Notes: generated by a model from the sequence alone, not told the origin. A DNA stretch of 64,000 nt from a virus (IMGVR_UViG_3300011767_000002:1-64000), one strand, 5' to 3'; positions 6,961 to 63,340 are shown, counted from the first letter of the stretch. Made by a program: numbers and translations.

Positions 6961-9894
6961 ATGTCTGAGCAACCAAGGCGGTTCCCGAGGTATGCCTCGC
7001 AGCGTTCCATTCCAGATGAAATCAAGGCGGTAATCGGCAAGCTCGGTGCCGATCCCCAAGGGGCGGGCCACCAACGTAAAAATATGCGTTTGCCCGATGG
7101 TCGGGTGCTAGCGCATGTCGCCAACACGACCATCGGTAACATCCGTGACGCCCGTAACCTGTTTCAGGTCCTGCCTGACATGGATTATGCCCGTCAGATC
7201 ATTATCTCGGCGACCTTGTCACCTGGGGATCTGACCGATTCCAAAGTCCTTTACAGCGTTAAAAACGATGACCTGGACAGCAACCTGACAGGACCCCTGT
7301 TGAGGATGGTTGGCGAGTTCTTCGATAATTCCTATAGGATTAGGACCCTGCTTCACCCGATCCTCAACGATGTCATGTTCGAGACCGGGTCCTACCCGAT
7401 CCTGATTATGCCGGAATCGTCCGTAGACCGGATCATCAATTCCGACAACTATGCCGGGGTGTCGATGGAGTCAGCCATCGGCATGCTGGACAGCCACCTG
7501 AATCAGGAAACCGACAGTCAAGGCAACTACCTGCCATGGGGTATTCTGGGCAATCCAACCACCCCCTCGTCCAAGGCAGTAGATTCCTACACTGGCGTCT
7601 CCTTTGAAAGCATGAACTTTAATGGCGCCACAAAATACAACCGGGGCGTCGATGTCAGCAAACTGACCATCAGCCTTGAATCCTTGGTTGAAAATAACGA
7701 AGCCAACAAGGATCTGCATGCCGGATTGACCAAGGTGTCCAAGTCGATGCAGAAACTGATTGCAGACAAGGGCACCACCATTGAGGTGATTGACAACCTC
7801 AGCATCCTCAAACGCCCGATGATTGTTGAGACGCGGCGCAAGTTAGCCGTCCGACGCATCTATGGGGGTCGGCTGCATCAGCGCGCGTCATTGGAAAGTC
7901 GTGCGGGGGCGGGCGATAAAGAGGCTGCACGTAACTTGGCCGCCGTGGAGAAAAGCCTCTACAGCAAACGCCGGTACCAGCACGTGCCCGTGCAGCCGTT
8001 GATGACCCATCGTCAGACAGAGACCAAAACCTTCGGCCATCCGCTGGTGATGCACCTGCCTTCAGAATCGGTGATCCCGATCCACGTACCTGGCAACCCG
8101 TCTGAACACGTAGGATATTACGTGATGTTGGACATCGACGGCAACCCCATTAACGTGGCTGACCAGTCCTCGTACTATGACGACATCAAGTCGCAAATGA
8201 ACAACGCGGACGGCTACGCCAGCCAGGTGATCCAGCAAGCCCGTCGTGGGTTTGAAGGCATGGGTGGGGTGAACAACGAGATCATCGATGAGATGGGTCG
8301 GGTTCATTCGGATGCCGTGGAAGCAGATTTGTTGTCAAGGCTGCGTTCAGGGGCCTTGTCTGGGAACTACGAGCTGGGCAAGACCGAGAACATCAACCGG
8401 ATCATGCTGGCGCGGCATCTAAAAGGTCAGCGGACCATGATGCTGTTCGTCCCACCGGAACTGATGACGTACATCGCCTTCGACTACAACGAATACGGGG
8501 TGGGTAAGTCGGTGCTTGAAGACGGCAAGATCCTGGGGTCTATTCGAGCAGCGTTAATGCTGGCCAACACCCTGGCCACGATCAACAATGCTGTCGGGGG
8601 CAAGACCGTCAACATCGAACTCGATCCTGAGGATGAAGACCCGGTCAGCACGGTTGAGTTTCTGTTGGCCGAACACGCCAAGACCAACGCCCAAGGCTTT
8701 AGTCGGATCGTGGGCTCGACGCACCCATTGGGGCTGGCCGATCAGATCCAGAACCATGGCCTGAACGTGGTGGTGAGCGGTAACTCCCGGTACCCGGAAA
8801 CCAAGTTTGATGTCAGTTCACGCGATGGCACGGCCAAGCCTGTGGACACCGAACTGGAAGAAATGATGCGCAAGCGCCATATCCAGATGTTCGGCTTGAG
8901 TCCAGAAACCATGGAAGGCATCAATCAAACGGACTTTGCGACCACCGTGGTGCAGAACAACCTGATGTTGCTCAAGCGGGTCATTCAGACCCAGGAGAAG
9001 TTTGAACCCTTCTTGACGGACCTGATCCGCAGTTACACCCTCAATTCCGGGATCTTCCTGGAAGACATGCGGGCGCTGATCACGGAAAACAAGAAGTTCC
9101 TGCCTGAAGAACTGCGCAACGACAAGGAGCTGTCGGAAGAGGAAAAGGTGGATGCCTTCCTCTTTGAGTTCATCGAAGCCTTGCACGCTGGCCTGCCGGC
9201 CCCTGAGGTCGGGGACATCAAGAAATCGATGGAGTCCTTTGAAGCGTACAGCGACGCATTGGACAAGGTCATCGATGCCTACCTCAACGAGGAGATGTAC
9301 GCGACCGATTCGACCATTGGCATGGAAGAGGTCATTCCGAACGTCAAGGCCGTGGTCAAGGCCGAGTTCCAACGGCGTTGGCTGCGCAGCAACAACATCA
9401 TGCCTGAACTTGATGTCTTTACCACCGTTGATGAGGAAGAGGGACCTGCTTTCGAACTCATGGAACTGGCCAGTAACCACACGGACGGCCTGAACAACTC
9501 GCTGTCTAAGTACATCAAGAAGGTGCTCAAGGCCGCTGCGAAGCGGGCTAAGGAACTGGAAAAGATCGAGAAGGCTAAGCAGGAGTTGCAGGAAGTCAAG
9601 GACGCTGCCGGGGTGAGCGGCGACGGTGGCATGGACGATGGTTTTGGCAATGAACCAACCGAAGACCTAGACGGTGACGGTCTTGGCGGTGATGACATTC
9701 CAATGGATGATGAGTCAGGGCTTGATGAGGTTCCGTTGGATGAATCAGCTACGCCTGAGGAAGAAGGTGAGCTGGACGAGGAGCCCTTAGCTGAGGAAGA
9801 GGAGACTCCCGCTGAAGGTGACGTAACCGCGGAAGAAGGCGCAGAAGGAACCGAGGGTCTGGATGACCTGGATCTGGACGCACCTAAAGTGTAA
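6961..9894 (+). CDS. Portal protein (phiKZ gp129-like)
   Basis: 977 aa, RBS gaggt; GSYPILIMPE, PSESVIPIHVPG and GKSVLE blocks; several S-x-E sites; acidic C-terminal tail; divergent from a gp128-like gene. Confidence 0.8.
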   Translation: MSEQPRRFPRYASQRSIPDEIKAVIGKLGADPQGAGHQRKNMRLPDGRVLAHVANTTIGNIRDARNLFQVLPDMDYARQIIISATLSPGDLTDSKVLYSVKNDDLDSNLTGPLLRMVGEFFDNSYRIRTLLHPILNDVMFETGSYPILIMPESSVDRIINSDNYAGVSMESAIGMLDSHLNQETDSQGNYLPWGILGNPTTPSSKAVDSYTGVSFESMNFNGATKYNRGVDVSKLTISLESLVENNEANKDLHAGLTKVSKSMQKLIADKGTTIEVIDNLSILKRPMIVETRRKLAVRRIYGGRLHQRASLESRAGAGDKEAARNLAAVEKSLYSKRRYQHVPVQPLMTHRQTETKTFGHPLVMHLPSESVIPIHVPGNPSEHVGYYVMLDIDGNPINVADQSSYYDDIKSQMNNADGYASQVIQQARRGFEGMGGVNNEIIDEMGRVHSDAVEADLLSRLRSGALSGNYELGKTENINRIMLARHLKGQRTMMLFVPPELMTYIAFDYNEYGVGKSVLEDGKILGSIRAALMLANTLATINNAVGGKTVNIELDPEDEDPVSTVEFLLAEHAKTNAQGFSRIVGSTHPLGLADQIQNHGLNVVVSGNSRYPETKFDVSSRDGTAKPVDTELEEMMRKRHIQMFGLSPETMEGINQTDFATTVVQNNLMLLKRVIQTQEKFEPFLTDLIRSYTLNSGIFLEDMRALITENKKFLPEELRNDKELSEEEKVDAFLFEFIEALHAGLPAPEVGDIKKSMESFEAYSDALDKVIDAYLNEEMYATDSTIGMEEVIPNVKAVVKAEFQRRWLRSNNIMPELDVFTTVDEEEGPAFELMELASNHTDGLNNSLSKYIKKVLKAAAKRAKELEKIEKAKQELQEVKDAAGVSGDGGMDDGFGNEPTEDLDGDGLGGDDIPMDDESGLDEVPLDESATPEEEGELDEEPLAEEEETPAEGDVTAEEGAEGTEGLDDLDLDAPKV

Positions 9895-9897
9895 CGG

Positions 9898-9931
9898 CAT
9901 AACGGGAGGGCCTTCGGGCTCTCCTGCTATG
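9898..9931 (+). terminator. CATA...TATG hairpin with TTCG loop after portal
   Basis: cata-acgggagggcc-ttcg-ggctctcctgc-tatg directly after the portal stop. Confidence 0.7.
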
Positions 9932-10441: not shown

Positions 10442-10775
10442 TTGCATTCGGTTGGTTCTGTTATCAGCATGTGCGGATTGTGAACATCGCATGGTGATGT
10501 GTCTGAGGCCTGACTGACGACATAAGGGAGGAGCCACTGGCTCCTCCTGTTATGTTGGATGTCACAAATCACCGATGTTGAGATTAGGGAAGGCGCGATC
10601 CTCACCCCAGATGATGCGCCCTCGATGTGCCGCCATAATCATGCTGTGTAGCATTGTAAGTCACCAAAGTAAGCCAATAGAAAGAACCCTCATAGGATTC
10701 GTCGGACTACACCGTCAATAAATAAAAACCCTGTATATGGGTGTGGTCAAGGAAATACCTTGATCGTGAAATACG

Positions 10776-11150
10776 ATGAGGAAACATGGAATGGACACAG
10801 TTAAACTCTCGTACGACGCTACAGCTTGGCAGGAGGTTCAGTGCCCCACGACTGTAGACTCGGTACTGCGCTTTATCAACAACTGCGAACGTGACTTGCG
10901 ATTATTACCTATCTTGGCCAAGAGCGGTGACCAAGAGACGGGATTGGTCTATGAAGTCATGGTCTCGGATGACCATGAGCACCTGTACATGGTGCTCGAT
11001 GGAGCGTGGACTATCCATGAGCTTAAGGTCGCCCCAGAAGGGGGATTGGACCTGATTGAAGTGTATACGCCTAGCAAGGGTCAGGCAGATACCTTAGCGC
11101 ATCTGTCAACGACACTTAAGGCGTCGAAAGGCTTTAGTTTAACCTTGTAA
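10776..11150 (+). CDS. Hypothetical protein
   Basis: 124 aa ORF with normal composition, no competing ORF. Confidence 0.6.
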   Translation: MRKHGMDTVKLSYDATAWQEVQCPTTVDSVLRFINNCERDLRLLPILAKSGDQETGLVYEVMVSDDHEHLYMVLDGAWTIHELKVAPEGGLDLIEVYTPSKGQADTLAHLSTTLKASKGFSLTL

Positions 11151-11168
11151 AGCTCAATGGTAAAATTC

Positions 11169-11194
11169 GATTCGAATCCGGAATGATCATACAT
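11169..11194 (+). promoter_or_regulatory. Putative early promoter, ATTCRA-N12/13-TACAT class
   Basis: gattcgaa-N12-atacat, same spacing as the copies at 11938 and 62034. Confidence 0.55.
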
Positions 11195-11291
11195 CATTTC
11201 ATTGAAGTGGTCACTTCTTTGTCTTAGATAGCGCGTCCTTTAAGTTACAGGGATGTAAAATCGTAAAAAACTACCGGCATGGATTATGGTA

Positions 11292-11427
11292 TAAGGGACA
11301 GGTACCAATGCCCTTACATAGCCCCGAGCGTGCGATAGGCAATAGCCATCGCCCTCGGGCTATGACCCTATGTCAGTCTGCCGTTATGTCGACCTCACCT
11401 AAGGCGCTGCAGATAGCTTCTTTTTTT
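11292..11427 (+). ncRNA. Structured ncRNA candidate, copy 1
   Basis: taaggg/ccctta stem with acaggtaccaatg loop; catagcccc-gag/ctcgggctatg outer stem enclosing gcgataggcaatagccatcgc; ends at a T-tract; no ORF over 60 aa. Confidence 0.6.
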
Positions 11428-11474
11428 GGTTGCAGGGACAAATGGTAAAAAATAACAAAGCTGACCTCTTGTAT

Positions 11475-11580
11475 AGGAGTAGGTACCGTTGCTCCTGAGA
11501 TCGTCACAGGTGCGCGATAGGCAATCGGCCATCGCCCCTGACGATCTACTATGCCGTCAGTCGGAGTTTACTGGCGGTGA
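11475..11580 (+). ncRNA. Structured ncRNA candidate, copy 2
   Basis: aggagt/gctcct stem with aggtaccgtt loop; agatcgtca/tgacgatct outer stem enclosing gcgataggcaatcggccatcgc; ccgtcagt/actggcgg 3' hairpin. Confidence 0.6.
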
Positions 11581-11613
11581 TGACCACCTTGCACTACCAC
11601 GAGGGAACCGTAC

Positions 11614-11802
11614 GTGACCACGACATCGCGTGCAGCCAATGATACCCCAGTGCTTGATCGTCCGTTACCTGTGCCCAAGGAGTCTGTGGCATTGGTCAAC
11701 CGGGTCTTATGTGATGCCTCGGATTACCGTCCGGCCACAGGACCCTTGCAAAAGATATTGTTGTGCGCTGCTCATAAAGCGTACGACCTGGCGCGGCGGT
11801 AA
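11614..11802 (+). CDS. Hypothetical small protein
   Basis: 62 aa, GTG start with gaggg upstream, followed by a terminator. Confidence 0.4.
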   Translation: MTTTSRAANDTPVLDRPLPVPKESVALVNRVLCDASDYRPATGPLQKILLCAAHKAYDLARR

Positions 11803-11880
11803 ACGCTAGCTGCGAGCCGTTCCGTTACAATGTTCACCCGATCTCCTCGCAGCACCTTACCGCTGGCGGTTGCCCAGCAC

Positions 11881-11925
11881 TGACCAGAAAGGCGCTTCGG
11901 TGCTTTTCTGGTCAGGTTCTTTTTT
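11881..11925 (+). terminator. Intrinsic terminator
   Basis: tgaccagaaaggcgc-ttcg-gtgcttttctggtca stem-loop then ttctttttt. Confidence 0.8.
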
Positions 11926-11937
11926 GCCACCAGAATC

Positions 11938-11975
11938 TGATTCGAACATTTTTCAACGATACATAGTACAGGTGA
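11938..11975 (+). promoter_or_regulatory. Putative early phage promoter
   Basis: 38-bp element with 35/38 identity to 62034-62071, each upstream of a small-gene cluster. Confidence 0.75.
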
Positions 11976-12025
11976 GCACGGAGAAACCATCTCCGGCCCT
12001 TAACCTTAATCGTTGGAGATGTATC

Positions 12026-12565
12026 ATGAGTAAAGAATTGGCTATGGGTCTGGGCATTGCGGGTGTGGCTGTTGCTGGTTTCTTCATTAAGCGGGGCTTG
12101 CAAAAGCGGGCGATCAACAAAGCCCAGAATGATCCAAAGTTGGTCGAGGCGGTAGTCAAGGCCGCCGCGTTGGACGCTCGGGTCACGGAACGAGGTACCT
12201 CTTTGAGCGACCCAATTGAAACCTTGGCGATTCATGCATTCGATCGGCGTTTCAAAGAAGCCTTGCCGTGTCATTTCGATCTGGCGTGGGCGAACGGTAC
12301 GGGTTATTTCAATAACGCGGTGAAGAAGCCAATGGACGTTGGTTCGGTTTACAAGACCTTCGACGACACCGGTCGGCGACTTCTTTTGATCGGAACCGAA
12401 CATGGAACCGTAGTGCTCTTCGACCGTTACACCCCAGGCCAGGGCCCATCGGTGATCGTCAGCAACACCCCTCGGGAACTGCGTGACTTGATTCCGAACG
12501 GGGCCTTGGATGCCGAATCCCTGGATGAGATCTTCGACACCCTGATCGACACCGTCAATCAGTGA
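12026..12565 (+). CDS. Membrane-anchored hypothetical protein
   Basis: Start MSKELA with ggaga RBS; Gly-rich N-terminal TM then KRGLQKR; soluble domain with WANGTGYF motif. Confidence 0.7.
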   Translation: MSKELAMGLGIAGVAVAGFFIKRGLQKRAINKAQNDPKLVEAVVKAAALDARVTERGTSLSDPIETLAIHAFDRRFKEALPCHFDLAWANGTGYFNNAVKKPMDVGSVYKTFDDTGRRLLLIGTEHGTVVLFDRYTPGQGPSVIVSNTPRELRDLIPNGALDAESLDEIFDTLIDTVNQ

Positions 12566-13844: not shown

Positions 13845-13877
13845 CATAGAGAGGCGCCCTAGGGCGCCTCTCTTATG
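13845..13877. terminator. CATA...TATG hairpin between convergent genes
   Basis: cata-gagaggcgccc-ta-gggcgcctctct-tatg then tttctttttt. Confidence 0.75.
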
Positions 13878-23719: not shown

Positions 23720-23753
23720 CATAGAGGAGGGGCAATTGCCCCTCCTCACTATG
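23720..23753. terminator. CATA...TATG hairpin between convergent genes
   Basis: cata-gaggaggggc-aatt-gcccctcctc-ac-tatg. Confidence 0.75.
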
Positions 23754-27749: not shown

Positions 27750-27783
27750 CATAACAGGGAGGGGCAACTGCCCCTCCTCTATG
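27750..27783. terminator. CATA...TATG hairpin between convergent genes
   Basis: cata-acagggaggggc-aact-gcccctcctc-tatg. Confidence 0.75.
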
Positions 27784-32787: not shown

Positions 32788-32825
32788 CATAGATGGGAGG
32801 GATCACCCCCTCCCATCGACTTATG
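32788..32825. terminator. CATA...TATG hairpin between convergent genes
   Basis: cata-gatgggaggg-atcac-cccctcccatc-gact-tatg. Confidence 0.7.
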
Positions 32826-41092: not shown

Positions 41093-41126
41093 CATAAGAG
41101 CCCAGGGCATTGCCCTGGGCTCTATG
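41093..41126. terminator. CATA...TATG hairpin between convergent genes
   Basis: cata-agagcccagggc-att-gccctgggctc-tatg. Confidence 0.75.
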
Positions 41127-41130
41127 TTGC

Positions 41131-43215
41131 TTATTGCCGGTCGGTGGCGTGGGCCATGGCCTTGGCAGCATCGCCAAACATGCCTGACATGGCCCACATC
41201 GCCGCACGTTCCGGCGACTTGGCATCGTCGAAGGCGGCTTGCTGACGCGCCAGGCGAACCGCCCACTTACGCAATCCGTTGATTTCCGCTTCCAAGGGTA
41301 GTCCTGCCAGAATGGCCAGGTAGTCGGTGTAGTTGTTATCGTCGTCGTACGTCGACCCCAACATGGCCGAAGCGGCCGCACTGCCCAGGTTAGCCACGTC
41401 CACGTCGCTGTTGGTCAACCAACCCACACCCTTACCAATCCCATACCCTGCGGCCTGAATGACCCGGTCTGAAAATTCAAACGAGGGGTTCACGTGCATG
41501 TTGACCGCGTTGGTCAGGTCAATCAAGCCAAGCTGGATGTCGACCCCCAGGAACCCACCGTTGTTGTTCCAGCCGATGTCGCCCGCACCCCGCGTGATGG
41601 TCAGGGAATCGACCATGGCCAGACGGGAGTGAGCCCGCCCTTGTGCGAAGTACTCCATGAGAAACGGCGAGGTGTGTGACTGTTTACCCGTCGCCAATGG
41701 CACTGCCATGGCGAAGATGCAACACAACGGCAAGATCAGGTTCTGAAGCCTGGAGACCGGATCACCATACGGAGACCGTAAGGGGATGTTCAGTGATAGC
41801 TTGTTGAAGTCACAGCTGGAACTATCCCAGACTTTGGGGATGTCCACGTAAGCCGAGCCTGCTAATTGTGCCAAGCCCTGGATACCAATCGCCTGGGTGG
41901 CCCCGGACATGAAATCCTTCAAGGCTTCGTAAGAACCCCCGATGATTCCCGACCCTTCCAAATTACCGTCAAACATGCTAAAGCGCGTTTCACGGGCACT
42001 GGCTGAGATGGCATTGATCTGCCCCTGAATAGAAGAGTCTTTGGTGGAGTTGTTAAAGGACTCGCTTTGCGTTCCAGTGAAATCCACCCGGACGCTCAAG
42101 AACTCAGACCCCATCCGCGCCTCGGACAACAATGCCTCTTCCATGCGGTTGATCACGCCGTCTTCCAGCCGTCCGGTTTTCTCCACCGCTTCTTTGTTAG
42201 CCAGGGCATCGTCGTCGCTGATGTACCCCAGCATCTCATTGGACTTCCAGAGCTCCGTATAGGCCGCTAGCGTGGCGCTGGAGGAGTTCCGGACAGACTC
42301 ATACACCTTGCCCATGTCTTCGCCGTACAGGCGCTGTTTGAAGATCTCACGCATGGCCTTCTTGGAGCTGACACCCTGCAGTTCCGAGTTCAGCAACTTA
42401 TGGCGGTTGTTGACCAACCGTTGTCCGCGTTGGGCGATGGCAAAGACATCCAATCCCCCGTCTTTACGGTAGATCGAGGGAATCAGGCGATGAAACTCAT
42501 TGACGTCTGCCTGGGTAATCTCATCGTCCTTGGAATGCAAGGGTTTGCTGCCTTGGTAGATCGGACGAGGAATCACCCCCATGTTGGCTGCAACGCCATT
42601 GACCATGGCTGACACCGCGGTCCAGTACGGCAACATCGATGGCTTGAGGTAATAATACTTACTGGCCGGTCGCCGCAAGAAGAACCGAATCACTTTACCG
42701 GCCATGATAAACGGCATCATCGGGATCGTGGCAATGGACCCCAATGCCCAACCCAGGTTATAGAAGAACCCAGGGGCGCGCCCTGACCGCGCCATGCTGG
42801 CGGCCGGGACAGAATAGTAGTTCGCATAAAACGAGGTCATGCTGTTAAACTGTGGAAACCCCATGCGAAAGTGGACCACCTGCATGTTGTCGTCAAACTT
42901 CTCACTGTACACCCGTCCAATCCCATTGGAGGATGACGTGTTGGTGGTGTTGGTGCGTGAGACCTTGGGCACCAGGACCGTCTTGCCCCGTGCGTTGGCA
43001 CTGCTAAACAGGTTATGTTTCAAATCGGCATAACGGGTGAACTGGGGCAATGGGTTGATGACGAAATTGCCGCCTAGGGTGGTGTCAGTGGCCTTTTGCA
43101 TCGACGTCGAATAGATACGGTTGACCACCGCCTCGTTCCCACCGATGATGGTATCTGATGGCAACAAGAATGCCGACTTCACCCAGCTGTCATCTAAGAT
43201 GTTATCCATGTACAT
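41131..43215 (-). CDS. Baseplate/tail virion protein (phiKZ gp139-like)
   Basis: 694 aa; INPLPQFTRYAD, LRSPYGDP, SPFLMEYF blocks; downstream of the tape measure. Confidence 0.7.
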   Translation of the reverse strand: MYMDNILDDSWVKSAFLLPSDTIIGGNEAVVNRIYSTSMQKATDTTLGGNFVINPLPQFTRYADLKHNLFSSANARGKTVLVPKVSRTNTTNTSSSNGIGRVYSEKFDDNMQVVHFRMGFPQFNSMTSFYANYYSVPAASMARSGRAPGFFYNLGWALGSIATIPMMPFIMAGKVIRFFLRRPASKYYYLKPSMLPYWTAVSAMVNGVAANMGVIPRPIYQGSKPLHSKDDEITQADVNEFHRLIPSIYRKDGGLDVFAIAQRGQRLVNNRHKLLNSELQGVSSKKAMREIFKQRLYGEDMGKVYESVRNSSSATLAAYTELWKSNEMLGYISDDDALANKEAVEKTGRLEDGVINRMEEALLSEARMGSEFLSVRVDFTGTQSESFNNSTKDSSIQGQINAISASARETRFSMFDGNLEGSGIIGGSYEALKDFMSGATQAIGIQGLAQLAGSAYVDIPKVWDSSSCDFNKLSLNIPLRSPYGDPVSRLQNLILPLCCIFAMAVPLATGKQSHTSPFLMEYFAQGRAHSRLAMVDSLTITRGAGDIGWNNNGGFLGVDIQLGLIDLTNAVNMHVNPSFEFSDRVIQAAGYGIGKGVGWLTNSDVDVANLGSAAASAMLGSTYDDDNNYTDYLAILAGLPLEAEINGLRKWAVRLARQQAAFDDAKSPERAAMWAMSGMFGDAAKAMAHATDRQ

Positions 43216-49718: not shown

Positions 49719-51368
49719 ATGAATTACGCTGAAGTACCCGCGAAAGTCTGGCCCATGGTCTTGACTAAGGAACGGGTCAGTCGGATGACGCCGGTGACCA
49801 GTCTGGATATCTACGACGGCGCCAGCAGTGAGTTTCATGACGAGGGGCTTTACTCGACAAAGATCTTCGGGCGCATGGGGTCTGAGGAACGTGACCGTAA
49901 CTTTTCTTACCTCGATCTGAAAGTCCGGATCTTCCACCCGAAGATCTTCCGGGATCTGATGAGCCTCAAGGCCATCTACCGCGGCATTGTCACCGGGCGG
50001 GAGACCGCCATCTTTGACCCGGTGACCAAGGACTTCGTGGCGGACAAGTCAGAACATGCCGAGACCGGCTACAGCTTCTTTGTCCGACACTTCCATGAAC
50101 TGGAACTCAGGAAAAGCAAATCCCCGACCCGCATGATCCGGGTGGAGTTTATCAACCAGTGGCGTAACGAGGCCTTGACCCGATACATCCCCATTCTGCC
50201 CGCCGGACTGCGCGACATCGAGATCAGTGACACCGGTGCGGTGAGTAAGAACGAGATCCATGACCTGTATTACCGGGCCTTGTCCATCAGCAACACCATT
50301 CCCGTGACCAGTAACATGGAATCACCGGCATTGGACATTGCCCGCAACGCACTGACCAATTGCATGATGGAGATTTACGAACTGATCGAGGGGATGTTGT
50401 CTGGGAAGAACGGGTTTATTCTGGACAAGTGGGCCAGTCGACGGGTGGTCTATGGAACCCGTAACGTCTTGACCGTGATGGACACCTCCATCGCCAACCT
50501 GAGCGACACCAACGCCCCAGGCTTTGATGCCACCAGCTTAGGGTTGTTTCAGGTGATCAAAGGCCTGACCCCGGTGACGGTACACCACTTACGTCGGACG
50601 TTCGGGCACCTGATTCAATCGGGTGAAGGCCAAGCTCAACTGATCGATAAGAAGACGCTCAAACCGGTGTGGGTCTCATTATCCCCGGAGACGCGGGACA
50701 CCTGGACCACCCGTGATGGGTTGGTTAAAGTCATTGACCGTTACCAGATGGTGGAGATGCGGCACCGTGCCGTGGAAATCGAAGACCATTACCTGGCCCT
50801 GATCTATAAAGGAGCGGATAAGACGTTTCGTATCTTCTACGACATCGATGAACTGCCTGCTAACCTGGACCGGGCACACGTACACCCGATCAACCTAGTG
50901 GAAGTCTTGTACCTGTGCGGCTACGCGCATTGGAACAAGTACTTCGCACAGATCTGCCGCTACCCGATCTCAGGCAACCGCTCGATCTATGCCAGCCGTG
51001 TCTATGTCAAGACCACCGTGGTCGGTGAACGCCGAGTGGAGCTGGATGACCAGTGGCAGCCGTTAGAAGGCGATGAGTTCGTAGCGCTTGAGTTTCCGAT
51101 GACCGGGTCTACGTCTTATATGGACACGCAATCTCCGCACTCAACCAAGCTTGTAGGATTGGCGGCGGACTTTGACGGCGACACCGGCAGTGCTACATTG
51201 GTCATGTCCAATGAAGCCCTGGCTGAGAATGACCGGATTTTACGGTCTCGGCAATATTGGGTCGACACCGACGGCAGCCTGATGAGCTCCTACGACTACG
51301 ACACCATCAAGTACGTCACCACCAACCTGACAGGACGATTCAACCATGGCCGTAATGTTTCTCTATGA
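49719..51368 (+). CDS. rpoC: Virion RNA polymerase beta-prime, N-terminal/catalytic subunit (phiKZ gp180-like)
   Basis: GLYSTKIFG, RYIPILPAGLRD, catalytic ADFDGD; start taken at MNYAEV. Confidence 0.9.
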   Translation: MNYAEVPAKVWPMVLTKERVSRMTPVTSLDIYDGASSEFHDEGLYSTKIFGRMGSEERDRNFSYLDLKVRIFHPKIFRDLMSLKAIYRGIVTGRETAIFDPVTKDFVADKSEHAETGYSFFVRHFHELELRKSKSPTRMIRVEFINQWRNEALTRYIPILPAGLRDIEISDTGAVSKNEIHDLYYRALSISNTIPVTSNMESPALDIARNALTNCMMEIYELIEGMLSGKNGFILDKWASRRVVYGTRNVLTVMDTSIANLSDTNAPGFDATSLGLFQVIKGLTPVTVHHLRRTFGHLIQSGEGQAQLIDKKTLKPVWVSLSPETRDTWTTRDGLVKVIDRYQMVEMRHRAVEIEDHYLALIYKGADKTFRIFYDIDELPANLDRAHVHPINLVEVLYLCGYAHWNKYFAQICRYPISGNRSIYASRVYVKTTVVGERRVELDDQWQPLEGDEFVALEFPMTGSTSYMDTQSPHSTKLVGLAADFDGDTGSATLVMSNEALAENDRILRSRQYWVDTDGSLMSSYDYDTIKYVTTNLTGRFNHGRNVSL

Positions 51369-54300
51369 CCGCTATGTCAAGCTGTTTGGCATCCGTCGCT
51401 TGGGCGGGCTGGAAAACCCCAAGGTCCGACCGATTGCCCGCCTAGCGTTTCCACGCGGCACCACGTTCCACCACATGCCCATGTCTGAAACCGAACTGGG
51501 GCCGGCCAACGACCACATGGCGATCCAAGCGGCTCAACGCTTGGTCTACATCGACCACGTACCAGACCTGCTAGCAAAGGAAGGCAATCCCCGCCCTACC
51601 TATAAACTCCTCGCGCCAATGCAAACGCAGTACCGCCGGGAACACATGATGCTGCGCCCGATGCGCGACTACGAAGGGGCGACCAAAGAACTGCTTAACA
51701 CCGTGGTGGTCAACTACGCCATGGTCGGGCAAATGTACAAATACATGCGGTCTGCACTGAGTCGGTGGTGGGCGTGGAAGAACATGCGCTCTACCATGTG
51801 GGAACGGATCAACCAACTCAAGACCCCGCACGAACGCCATCACATTGTCGTGTTTGATGTCCCAAGCTCCCTGCCCTCGTTGTCGGATCTGCGCAAGGCA
51901 GAACGGGGCATCAGCCCCGTCTTGATGAACAAGGTCTTCAACACACGTGAGCGGTTGGACCTGCTGGATATCTGGACCTGGCTCGGCGAGCACCGGGCGC
52001 TGGCGCCCATGGCGCGGCTGGATATAACCCGGCTGCACGAAGTGGACCTATTGATTCGCAAGGACACTGGTTGGCTCACGTTGAACCTAGGCACCCTCAA
52101 CAGCTGGCGTCGCGAAGATGCTGTGGTCTCCTTGGAAAGCCTCCAGGAAGAACACCCTGAAGAGTCGTTCGATTTCGAGGCCACCTACGACCGCTATGTG
52201 TCACTGGAAATGGCGGGGGATGACACGCTCGATGCTGACCTGATTCATCCGTCCATGGAAGCCGCAACGGGACTCGATCCTAAGATCATTCAGATCCGTT
52301 TCCTGAAGATGCTGACCAAGGTCATTAACCAGACCAACCCACTGGTCACAGTGCCTGACGAACCAGAGGAAGTGGCGGCCGATGACGAACTGCGCGAGCA
52401 GGAAGAAGCCCGCGATGATGCCGACACCGCACAGCAATTAAGAGAAGAGGCCGGCACCGCGGCTGAATTCATCGAAGCCGAGGAAGAAGAACTGGCAGCG
52501 GAACTGGACGCCCCAAGTACCGGCGGGAACGATGCGATCATGACGGATGAGGACGGTGAGTTGATCATCGAGGCCGATCCCGATACCCGCGAAGAGGCAC
52601 CCCTGGCCATCAGTTCTTCTGCCGTCTCCCATACCCTGACCAGCGCAATTCAGTCAAAGCTCGACGAGCTGGTGGACAAGGACCTGTACACTGCGGCGCA
52701 ATACCGGCGGATGCAGCGCTTGGCTGAGTCCTACAAGTCCATGCCCGACCCATGGGACAAGGGTCAGACGGTGGAAGAAGCCATGGTCATCACAGATGAG
52801 GACTTGGTGCTCGGAGATGCCGAGAACTACCCGAAGTCTGATGCAGTGCGCGATGAAACGATGTTGCAGTCCACGGTTGAAAAGATGGACAGCCAGTACA
52901 TCGAAAAGGTCATGAAGAAAGACATCCTCAATGCGGTGATGTCGGTTCAGAAGGCTGGGATCGCGGTCACGGGTTACACGGTTGAGACGGTTGAAGATGC
53001 CGTGAGCCACTACGAGATCCACAAGGTCCAACTGACTCCGGTAACCGGCAAGCCTTCCACGATCAGCTTCCGGGTCCCGGTGGTGGATAAACGAGGCGTC
53101 TATGTCAGCAACGGGCAACGCTATCGCTTACGAACTCAAAAGGCCGATATTCCGATTCGGAAGGTCAATGAGTCGCGGGTGGCGCTGACGTCTTATTACA
53201 GTAAACTGTTTGTCGAGCGTTCGCAGCGGGCAGTGTTCAACTACGATAACTGGATTGGCAAACAGATCATTGCCAAGGGCCTGGACCAAGCTGACACCAG
53301 CATCACCAATGTAAAGGTGGCCAACGTCGCTGACTATGCACTCGACCTCCCCACGATCTACACCGTGATCGGGACACGGGTGATGAGCTTTGAAGCGAAC
53401 GGTCATTATTGGTTCGACTATAAGAACCGCTTGCGTTCAAGGCTGTTCGAACAAACGGCGCTGACACACTTGGAGACCGCGCACAAAGGCATGGTGGTCT
53501 GCGGACGCCGCGACCAGCGCTACATCATGGTCGACCGCAGCAACATGTTTTATTTGGCCAGTCTGGACAATGACCACGTCAGTGAACTGGGACACATCGA
53601 AGACATCCTCGGGTTGCCGCGGGACAAAGCACCGGTGAACATGGCGGAGATCAGCATCTTCGGTAAAACCATGCCGGTGGGCATTGCCTTGGCGTACCTG
53701 ATTGGGTTTGACCGGCTGCTGGAGATGAGCAAAGCCCAGTACCGGGCGGTGCCATTGGGCACGCGGTTGCAGATGGCCGATGACGAGTATGCGATCAAGT
53801 TCCTCGATGAGACACTGGTCCTGGATAAGAGTGACGCGCAAAACAGTCTGGTGTTTGCAGGGTTCTTGCACTACCACAAGCAAGTGCGGAGCTTCAGTCG
53901 ACACAGCTTCAATAACAAGGACGTGTACTTCAACCTGCTAGAAGCCAACAACATCGGCTTGCGCTACCTGCGTGAGCTGGACCTGATGAGCGCCATGTGG
54001 GTCGATCCGATCACCAAGGGCGTGTTGGAGTGGATGAAGGAGCCGACCGAGTTTATCCCATTGCTGCTCAGGGCATGTGAACTGCTGATCACCCGGTATG
54101 TGCCGGATAAGGTCGAGAACGCAGAAGGGCTGGTAGAGTGCATGGAGCGTGCCAAGGGCTATGAACGGATTCCAGGGGCGGTGTATGGCGAACTGGTCCG
54201 GTCCATTCGGGTGTACAATTCGCGCAATGCCAGTAACGGCTCACAGGTGACGATGAAACCACACGAGATCTGGACCAACATCGTCCAGGACCCGGCGTCG

Positions 54301-54620
54301 GCCATCGTGGATGACATCAACCCCATTCAAAACCTCAAGCAGAAAGAGATCATCACTTACGGCGGCCGAGGCGGGCGCAGTAGTCGGTCGATGACAGCCG
54401 AGGCGCGACTGTATAAGGAAAGTGACATCGGGTTCATTTCCGAGAGCACGGTGGACTCTGGTGACGTGGCGGTGATTACCTACATGACACCGAATGCCAA
54501 TATCACCAGTGTACGCGGTACCGTGCGCGCGTTCAACAAGGACACTGACGGTTCGGCCAACTTGGTCTCGACCTCAGCGCTGGTCTCGCCTTTCGCTGAT
54601 CGAGATGACCCCAAACGGGT
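51346..54620 (+). CDS. rpoB: Virion RNA polymerase beta (phiKZ gp178-like), exon 1
   Basis: TYGGRGGRS, ESTVDSG, SPFADRDDPKRV correspond to beta HDDANRA; the frame then runs into the intron. Confidence 0.85.
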
Positions 54621-54969
54621 GTGTAAAATCGCCCTTACTTCTTTAATTGCTGGAACCCCCTAAAGCTGTCTCACCACTGCGCGGCGAAAGCCAAAGCCAC
54701 GGTTTGAAAACGAGACAGATACTGCAATGGGCAATCAGCAGCGAAGACCCTACCGACTGTCGGGAGACAGGCCAGGGGTAACGTTCATCGACTATCCCGC
54801 AAGGGAGTACTCAGGCAGCGCCTGGGGAAACAGGAAGCACAGGTTTGACTCCAAGGCCTGTGAAGATATAGTCAGCTCCTTAGGGAAAGCCTAAGGCGGG
54901 TGTCTGCGCACACCGGGTTTCGAATAGGACGTCAGACGTGACAAACAGCGTTCGAAACTGGACAACAGG
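54621..54969 (+). mobile_element. Group I intron (IA2-like), no homing endonuclease
   Basis: P aattgctggaac 54645, Q aatcagcag 54733, R gttcatcgacta 54783, S aagatatagtc 54863; P7 GACUA/UAGUC; U.G pair at the 5' splice site; terminal G; removal restores DDPKRVNFIGIQ. Confidence 0.9.
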
Positions 54970-56089
54970 GAACTTCATTGGGATTCAGCAGTCCCACGTG
55001 ATTTCGGCAGAAGGCTACCGGGAATCGCCAATCTCCACCGGGTACGATCACATCCTGGCCCACCGGGTCGATGAGATCTTTGCGGTCCCAGCCGAACAGG
55101 CCGGAGAGGTGGTGGAACGGTCCGATGAACACATGGTGGTGGCCTACGAAGACGGGACCTTTGCGCACATTGACTTGGCGACCCAGTACGGGGTCTCGGC
55201 AGGTTCGGTGTACCCGCAAAAGCAAGCCAGTACCTTCCAGCTGGGCGACAAAGTGCAAAAGGGCGACATCCTCAAGTACAACTCGGGCTTCTTCAAGCCT
55301 AGTAAATTCCATCGCCATCAAGTGCAATGGATGGCTGGAGTGATTGCGCGGACCGCACTGATGGAAGCGTCCTACACCCTGGAAGACTCCTCGGCTATGG
55401 ACGATTGGCTGGCCCAGCAACTGGGGTCACAGGTAACCAAAATCAAGACCATCGTGGTACGGTTTGACCAGACAGTCAGGAACTTGGTTAAGGAAGGGGA
55501 CAACACCGACATCACGAGTATCTTATGCACGATTGAAGATGCTGTAACAGCGGATTCGGGACTCTTCTCTGATGACGACCTTGAGACCCTTCGGATGATG
55601 TCGTCCGCGACCCCTACTGCAGGGGCTGTAGGCGAGGTGTCGAAGATTGAGGTTTTCTACCACGGTGACACGGACGACATGTCCGATTCGCTGTTGGAGT
55701 TGGTCACTGCCCAAGACAAACGTCGCCGTAAGGTGGCCAAGCGTCTAGGCAAACCAGTGGTCACAGGTCAAGTGGATCAGTCCTTGCGCATTGACGGGAA
55801 TGGTCTGGAACTCGATCACGTCGCCATTAAAGTCTACATCACTCACCGTGAAGGCATGGGCGTGGGCGATAAGGCAGTGTTCTGTAACCAAATGAAAACG
55901 GTCGTGGGTCACCGCTTGAGCGGGATCAATGAAACGTTCAGTGGGCGACAGATCAATGCCATCTTCGGCGCGAAATCGGTCATGGACCGGATTGTATTGT
56001 CCGCCCTATTGATCGGGATGTCGATTTCGGTGCAGACCGCGATCGGTGAGAAAGCTGCAGCGATGTGGCTGGGTAATGACACCAAGTAG
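54970..56089 (+). CDS. rpoB: Virion RNA polymerase beta (phiKZ gp178-like), exon 2
   Basis: NFIGIQQSHV, EDS, GDK..NQMKTV and GAKS motifs of the beta C-terminal half. Confidence 0.85.
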
Positions 56090-61990: not shown

Positions 61991-62032
61991 CATAAACCCC
62001 CGTCCCGGTTCTGGCCAGGGCGGGGGTTTATG
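61991..62032 (+). terminator. CATA...TATG hairpin ending the late operon
   Basis: cataaacccccg/cgggggtttatg stem. Confidence 0.7.
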
Positions 62033-62033
62033 T

Positions 62034-62071
62034 TGATTCGAACTTTTTTCAACAATACATAGTACAAGTGA
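62034..62071 (+). promoter_or_regulatory. Putative early phage promoter
   Basis: 35/38 identical to 11938-11975. Confidence 0.75.
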
Positions 62072-63198: not shown

Positions 63199-63211
63199 GT
63201 TGTCCAGATTC

Positions 63212-63237
63212 AATTCAATCTATTTGAAGCGCTACAT
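63212..63237 (+). promoter_or_regulatory. Putative early promoter, degenerate copy
   Basis: aattcaat-N12-ctacat, same spacing as the other copies. Confidence 0.5.
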
Positions 63238-63340
63238 TATCAAGTTGAATATCGGAAGCTGATTGTAAATAAAAACACTCGGCGCCTCTGATGTGCGTTA
63301 ACCCGCGTCACACAACGAAAATTTAAATGGAGTACAAACG

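Follow-up and report, generated by a model that had tools for sequence, protein, structure and literature searches.

Two tandem units on the + strand of a 64,000-nucleotide stretch of phage DNA (the whole of which is hereafter the window) are real elements whose single-stranded structure on that strand is under selection. As the preliminary description of this DNA had proposed, they belong to a previously undescribed phage RNA family, in that covariation is strong and Rfam holds no match. From sequence, we consider it probable that each unit is a phage-type cassette which makes a two-hairpin small RNA, that the same RNA also serves as a 5' leader, and that it is recognised by a shared partner.

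The window is the opening 64 kb of an IMG/VR contig (G000) of 79,940 bp that is estimated to be 30% complete and that derives from a phiKZ-like jumbo phage; the encoded proteins include an RNA polymerase beta-like protein of the multisubunit kind (51346-54663) and homologues of phiKZ virion proteins. A 977-aa protein encoded at 6961-9894 is a homologue of phiKZ gp129, which we take to be the portal protein, and the units lie 1.4 kb downstream of its gene. This region had been described as free of reading frames. Inspection shows it instead to be an island of small genes, terminators (in which it is dense) and promoter-like repeats that runs from the gp129 homologue to ~14.5 kb entirely on the + strand, the strand that also carries the genes and terminators flanking the units. 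Within the island, unit 2 precedes a 62-aa gene (gene C, 11614-11802, +, with a GTG start after GAGGGA), whose orthologues are placed likewise in relatives, and an intrinsic terminator with a 16-bp stem and a T-run (11880-11925, +) closes the transcription unit formed by unit 2 and gene C. No Pfam or PHROG family was matched by gene C, by the 231-aa gene A considered below, or by the 124-aa and 179-aa ORFs of the island.

The layout proposed for the two units, about 180 bp apart with a common upstream motif and differing stems, is borne out at each step. Their starts are separated by 182 bp, and in both units GTAAAAAA (11263-11270 and 11445-11452) stands 19 nt ahead of a TATA (11290-11293 and 11472-11475), a combined pattern that occurs twice in 64 kb and is expected 0 times in shuffled sequence. 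The promoter-like element of unit 1 (11257-11293) consists of an A-rich/TAC block (11257-11275), a 14-nt non-conserved spacer and TGGTATA ending at 11293; that of unit 2 (11440-11475) consists of AAATGGTAAAAAATAAC (11440-11456), a spacer and TTGTATA ending at 11475. Hairpin A follows at 11292-11316 in unit 1 (stem TAAGGG/CCCTTA) and at 11475-11496 in unit 2 (stem AGGAGT/GCTCCT, including a U-G pair), the unlike stems enclosing AGGTACC in both cases, with GGTACC in the loop at 11301-11306 and 11482-11487, respectively. Hairpin B comes next, again with unlike outer stems but with an exact shared 12-mer, GCGATAGGCAAT; in unit 1 (11317-11364) a long irregular stem carries the apex GCGAT-A-GGC-AATA-GCC-ATCGC with its bulged A, and in unit 2 (11497-11548) an outer stem of GAGATCGTCA/TGACGATCT carries the same apex around the loop AATCG. 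The tail of unit 1 (11365-11429) contains TATG at 11369-11372, an imperfect hairpin and a T-run at 11418-11427, while that of unit 2 (11549-11562) contains TATGCCGT at 11550-11557, which matches TATKYYGT at 8/8 positions. Both units share CTATG, as had been noted, but the GTCAGTC once thought to belong to a common tail is not conserved across the family, where only TAT is invariant and the usual reading is TATGCCG.

Selection on RNA structure, which had been suspected from the two units, is confirmed by strong covariation across 25 copies. Folding of the + strand of both units beats that of shuffled sequences (z = -4.3 and -3.4; 0/200 shuffles as good), and unit 2 folds clearly better on the + strand than on the - strand. 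In an alignment of 25 distinct copies comprising the window units and those of relatives (A5), 97% of cells form standard pairs, as opposed to 32-46% when partners are slid, and 17 of the 23 pairs show compensatory changes, values that 0 of 500 shuffles reached; covariation is also strong in a 19-copy set, and RNAalifold likewise supports the fold. In hairpin B, 18 pairs form an irregular, bulged helix, and 14 of them covary. The core stem of this hairpin changes from GCGAU/AUCGC to GCGGU/ACCGC or GCGAC/GUCGC, and the apical stem from GGC/GCC to GAC/GUC or GGUG/CACC.

Only a handful of bases are invariant against this background of drifting stems: the first GG/CC pairs of hairpin A, the GGUACC in its loop, the GCG/CGC at the base of the apex stem in hairpin B, and the UAU after hairpin B. 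The hexamer is present in 25/25 copies, amid variable stems and within a loop whose 3' half also varies; the hairpin A loops measure 9-13 nt, a purine lies directly 5' of GGUACC in 24/25 copies, and the hexamer is mostly unpaired by prediction (mean unpaired probability 0.78). The hairpin arms around GGTACC are asymmetric, with 4-5 nt on the 5' side and 5-8 nt on the 3' side. In hairpin B, the bulged A beside the apical stem is present in most copies with some variation, and the loop is variable in both length and sequence (AAUA, AAUCG, AACG, ACAUUC) with no complement within the unit. The outline of this apex is that of the MS2/PP7 coat-protein operator hairpin, in which a 5-bp stem, a bulged A and a 3-4-bp stem carry a small A-rich loop. 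The likeness is one of shape only; no coat-like protein is known here, and the hairpin B loop varies in sequence.

The family was delineated by pattern scans of IMG/VR, JGI metagenomes and GTDB genomes that were filtered by two covariance models (R1 and R2), with whole-record searches added. Extra scans (IMG/VR, one JGI metagenome scan and one of GTDB) yielded 9 further distinct copies, all with GGUACC; no member with another loop hexamer or another apex appeared in the IMG/VR, JGI or GTDB scans, in which the remaining pattern matches were chance. All members fall within a clade of phiKZ-like phages with genomes of ~250-277 kb, and complete relatives carry 1-3 copies, near-complete ones of 254-277 kb having one or three, always on one strand and in a single cluster within the island that lies behind the gp129 homologue. 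A blastn search against 50,697 phage records found the element only in Pseudomonas phage pPa_SNUABM_DT01 (L027, MW735835.1; hereafter DT01), whose single copy, found with model R1, occupies an unannotated gap (41361-41519) between PA10_00041 and PA10_00042, 34 nt ahead of the latter and with no RNA feature annotated. Model R2 found no match in ANB1 (Phikzvirus), PhiPA3, Noxifer, RP31 or Xoo-sp14, and in phiKZ-type genomes the gene after gp129 follows immediately on the opposite strand. The R2-negative chimalliviruses and this other layout behind gp129 together indicate that the island is specific to the clade.

An Rfam 15 cmscan of 10500-12500 with E values up to 10, against models that include Phage_pRNA, HIV DIS, CRISPR-DR repeats and small ribozymes, returned three chance matches, none on the units, and ARAGORN reported 0 tRNA or tmRNA genes in the window. 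An Rfam scan at gathering thresholds of the window, the DT01 locus and relative L023 likewise matched nothing on the units; its sole match was a group I intron (RF00028) at 54565-54896 on the + strand, scoring 55.3 bits against a gathering score of 50. This intron overlaps the end of the RNA polymerase beta-like ORF, whose reading frame seems to resume in 54938-56089.

Examination of the neighbourhoods reveals three paralogous types of unit. Type 1 units precede gene A (231 aa). Type 2 units are followed by a hairpin and a U-run, and then by the promoter block of the next unit. Type 3 units, which include window unit 2 and the single DT01 copy, precede a 55-64-aa gene with the motif LVRRLLxDxV; gene C is the orthologue of this gene, which stands after the unit in most relatives and corresponds to PA10_00042 in DT01. 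Other genes are found downstream as well (a 268-aa gene in L003 and a different ORF in L026), with identical loops in the RNA. In most copies, a Shine-Dalgarno (SD) sequence and an ATG lie 5-37 nt past the model match, and gene C orthologues follow in 11 genomes. Several copies nonetheless stand alone (the type-2 copies of L023, L024 and L025, and those of L030, L058 and L069), followed by a terminator, as in L030 and L058, or by the next promoter, and these keep the fold and all of the invariant bases, some by means of compensatory changes. The early reading of the pair as tandem noncoding RNAs thus survives as to the structured RNA family but not as to free-standing RNAs alone, since the units are cassettes of promoter, two hairpins and terminator flank that mostly lead into small genes.

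Unit 1 has a mixed origin. A three-way alignment shows it to be a chimera that is type 1 up to TCACCTAAGG and continues thereafter with a type-2 terminator, the junction falling near 11396-11406 (TCACCTAAGG) within a 10-11-nt stretch common to the tails of the two units. Relative to L023 (15880-16880), ~1 kb is missing, comprising gene A, a 50-aa ORF and a type-2 unit. The deletion evidently arose by recombination between the repeated tails, and the position of the junction within the stretch that the tails share shows the repeats to be drivers of rearrangement in the island.

Upstream of the RNA, the block AAATnGTAAAWAAWWAC is placed exactly 19 nt (counted from GTAAAWAA) before TRTA-GG in all 18 copies for which upstream sequence is available, and the spacer between the A-rich/TAC block and TRTA is unrelated between copies. 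The element of unit 2 has a PWM score of 47.6, the best in the contig. Each genome also has one orthologous site at which the same bipartite motif stands without the RNA, a control search with the reversed pattern giving 0 matches. In the window this site lies at 63265-63295 on the + strand (A-rich/TAC block, 19 nt, TGTG; PWM match at 63259), and it is orthologous in G002, G003, G005 and DT01. These properties support a motif that behaves like a promoter, is separable from the RNA and is strand-specific; a sigma-70 scan at the units found no host-type promoter. That the A-rich block might instead be transcribed and serve as an (AAN)n site of the Hfq/Crc type was rejected, since its distance to TRTA is fixed across a spacer that is not conserved and it is also found without the RNA.

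The phiKZ middle promoter has a TACT centred 22 nt before the start site with an A-rich repeat ahead of it (Wicke et al., PMC8244752), and the units resemble it in having an A-rich repeat and a TAC(T) ~22 nt before the presumptive start; a middle-type promoter class for the units would follow from this match of a motif to the verbal description of one from another genus. In DT01 the block reads GTAAATAAATACT, and applying the 22-nt spacing to it places the start at the GG with which hairpin A begins. A start at the GG after TRTA, within a few bases, is accordingly the likely one throughout the family, and in unit 1 transcription would begin within ~3 nt of 11294-11296. Such a start would make hairpin A 5'-terminal. 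A helix (P1) that would close the structure by pairing the 5' UAUA with the UAUG of the tail was also considered and set aside, since it is 85% pairable but lacks compensatory changes and does not exceed shuffled sequences; with transcription starting after TRTA, this helix would be absent from the RNA altogether.

A second promoter-like element (ATTCGATTCGAA, ~12 nt, then GATCATACAT or GATACATAGTA) is found on the + strand at 11160-11200, upstream of unit 1. It recurs on the same strand at 11935-11975, ~62034-62071 and ~63200-63240, in each case after terminators and before small genes, and stands right behind an RNA unit in relatives L006, L030, L058 and L069. The RNA-free site at 63265-63295 follows a copy of this element by ~40 nt, as does the promoter-like block of unit 1. 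The second element may be the early (virion polymerase) promoter of the clade.

The tail of the RNA carries a signature of its own. Intrinsic terminators of phiKZ, of which 61 have been described, consist of a hairpin followed by YTTATKYYGT (Putzeys et al., PMC10914365), and the family tail UAUGCCGU fits the flank TATKYYGT of these sites, at 8/8 positions in 9 copies, window unit 2 included, and at 7/8 in most others; here too a motif is matched to a text on another genus. Post-gene hairpins of the window phage are themselves followed by YTATG, and in L069 the next promoter-like element comes directly behind the tail with no intervening terminator. Taken together, the flank fit, the phage's own YTATG hairpins and the L069 layout lead us to suppose that a short RNA ends, or is processed, at hairpin B and its tail, and the tail of unit 2 is likely to be such a 3' end or processing point. 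Compared with the terminator hairpin of phiKZ, however, hairpin B is far longer and has an apex that is conserved, and it is likewise longer and more ornate than the ordinary terminators of the window phage, so that it is the flank motif that carries the terminator reading. Those ordinary terminators were checked by eye. GC-rich post-gene hairpins with a closing CATA...TATG and with YTATGYK behind them, most of which lack a U-run, are found at 18-62, 9898-9931, 10521-10554, 13845-13877, 23720-23753, 27750-27783, 32788-32825, 41093-41126 and 61991-62032; they are probably the standard, often bidirectional, terminators of this phage and resemble the phiKZ motif.

These elements can be assembled into a model for the cassette. 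A phage RNA polymerase would initiate at a promoter of the phiKZ middle type (A-rich repeat and TAC(T/C)), at the GG past TRTA, yielding an RNA that opens with hairpin A and passes directly into the long hairpin B. Termination or processing at the UAUGCCGU tail after hairpin B would then release an RNA of ~85-95 nt, and read-through into gene C (in the window and DT01) or gene A (in relatives) would leave the same RNA as the 5' leader of that gene's transcript, which the 5'-terminal hairpin would also stabilise. The retention of the fold and of the invariant bases in stand-alone copies indicates that the RNA itself would be the functional product and not only a cis element, and the pattern in which stems drift and small sites stay fixed across paralogues and lineages fits recognition by one shared factor, a trans-acting partner, most likely a protein of the phage or the host, that the RNA would bind or titrate. 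We infer the timing class, partner, function and transcript ends from sequence patterns. A protein partner leaves one feature without explanation, namely that the invariant loop hexamer is a palindrome.

In phiKZ and 201phi2-1, premature termination commonly gives rise to short 5'UTR RNAs (PMC10914365, PMC11512511), and the present family is a new one of this kind known in chimalliviruses, the promoter-proximal short RNA or leader. As with the short RNAs detected by ONT-cappable-seq in those phages, it is found in chimallivirus-type jumbo phages and places a structured RNA behind a phage promoter, with a terminator in the 5'UTR, a read-through form that includes the downstream gene and conservation among relatives, features that in our case are predicted from sequence. 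It shows no sequence or structure homology to them (R2 being negative in ANB1 and PhiPA3), and it is unusual in its dedicated promoter block, its multi-copy and modular use, its invariant palindromic loop and its stand-alone form.

The family is of interest in that phiKZ-type jumbo phages, which conduct their own transcription, produce many short promoter-proximal RNAs, among which it offers an unusually clean case: very strong covariation with few invariant bases, pointing to one specific partner, and leader and stand-alone variants in 1-3 copies. It also provides signatures of candidate promoters and terminators in a clade that has gone unstudied, and the presence of a member in a cultured Pseudomonas aeruginosa phage, DT01, makes direct experiments possible.

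The palindrome left over by the protein-partner reading is the starting point for a different account, in which a kissing-loop dimer formed through GGUACC is central to function, coupling transcripts or serving as a bivalent scaffold for protein; phages with a single copy would form homodimers, and those with two or three paralogues both homo- and heterodimers. We regard this as possible but unlikely. The invariance of a self-complementary hexamer amid varying stems and loop 3' halves speaks for it, as does the accessibility of the 9-13-nt loop with its 5' purine, an arrangement shared with the HIV-1 dimerisation initiation site (DIS), which also presents a six-base self-complementary sequence in a hairpin loop. 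The biology of the two systems is unrelated, though, the dimer is in our case a prediction, and the unit family has no alternative palindromes. The chance that a conserved hexamer would be a palindrome is 1/64, an argument weakened by the fact that the finding was picked for being one. No variant palindrome occurs in the family, searches independent of the hexamer gave no new members, and, because the hexamer never varies, sequence affords no covariation test of dimerisation. GGTACC is moreover common (35 sites in 80 kb), such that the loop would meet many other sites, and dimerisation leaves the conserved apex of hairpin B unaccounted for. Also doubtful is a variant that joins the two conserved sites, whereby GGUACC dimers would offer a protein partner a pair of bulged-A apex hairpins and could, for instance, serve a nucleus-forming jumbo phage as decoys of a host defence or RNA-binding factor; were such a self-pairing module to exist, three-copy phages would tie a free small RNA to the leaders of two accessory mRNAs.

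The presence of an SD sequence and a start codon behind most copies raises another possibility, that the unit acts purely in cis, as an attenuator, an SD-sequestering switch or a stabilising 5' hairpin, and that the stand-alone copies are remnants of gene loss. Unit 1 demonstrates that genes can be lost by recombination between units, the UUCC of the type-3 tail is able to pair with an SD of GGAA, and in DT01, L042 and L029 the SD and the 5' arm of hairpin A look alike. A switch in which the 3' arm of hairpin A pairs with the downstream SD is nevertheless not supported, pairing between cognate partners being overall not significantly better than between non-cognate ones (permutation p = 0.11). 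Stand-alone copies from at least four lineages retain both the fold, with compensation, and the invariant bases, which would not be expected of decaying remnants, and the loops are identical in front of downstream genes as different as gene A, gene C, the 268-aa gene of L003 and the ORF of L026. We therefore hold a purely cis-acting leader to be a weak contender against the shared-partner cassette.

Antitermination of the kind mediated by the put RNA of phage HK022, which consists of two adjacent promoter-proximal stem-loops, would be a more specific cis function, with the two hairpins binding the phage RNA polymerase and allowing read-through of the island terminators. Two adjacent stem-loops at the very 5' end, as in putL and putR, and the terminator density of the island would suit such a role. 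It is improbable all the same: several units run straight into terminators and then meet a fresh promoter-like element, a layout that suggests insulation and not read-through, and every downstream gene group has a promoter-like element of its own. A comparable resemblance exists to the phi10 leader of T7, in which a hairpin starts at +1 after TATA-GGGAGA; the units read TATA-GGGAAC or TATA-GGAGAA and would likewise begin with a 5'-terminal hairpin. The polymerases are unrelated, and the units resemble put and phi10 in shape only.

An element acting at the level of DNA, whether as an origin, as a cruciform or as the operator of a dimeric protein that binds GGTACC, is highly improbable. GGTACC is a DNA palindrome near the presumptive start site, and the 10-12 kb region has the lowest G+C in the window (0.494). 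Against such a role, the arms of hairpin A differ within one genome and are asymmetric around GGTACC, a poor fit to a dimeric DNA site; hairpin B is a bulged, irregular helix rich in covarying pairs; unit 2 folds preferentially as the + strand; and no turn in GC skew marks the units. Weakest of all is the suggestion, made at low prior in the preliminary description, of a ring at the portal that serves DNA packaging as the phi29 pRNA (RF00044) does: the units are small structured phage RNAs with a conserved loop capable of intermolecular pairing near a head/portal-type gene, but this reading is very unlikely given that Rfam searches with E up to 10, pRNA included, found no match, that a pRNA monomer needs two different complementary loops whereas the unit has a single self-complementary loop, sufficient for a dimer but unable to complete a ring, and a second loop that is variable, that copy number ranges from 1 to 3 with units used as mRNA leaders, that the phages are phiKZ-like and not phi29-like, and that the element is missing from phages with the same packaging machinery (phiKZ, PhiPA3, Noxifer, RP31 and Xoo-sp14).

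A genome-wide role for GGTACC as a target or signal was considered separately and rejected, the sequence being merely common in the 80 kb of the contig, where several other palindromes are commoner. The palindrome content of G000 is itself uneven: GGATCC, CCCGGG, ACTAGT and TAGCTA are absent from its 79,940 bp, CATATG occurs once, and CCATGG occurs 61 times, absences that may reflect avoidance of restriction sites. In addition, an imperfect palindrome at 12180-12213, inside the 179-aa gene (12026-12565), has a 10-bp core, GAGGTACCTC, that includes the GGTACC of the RNA loop.
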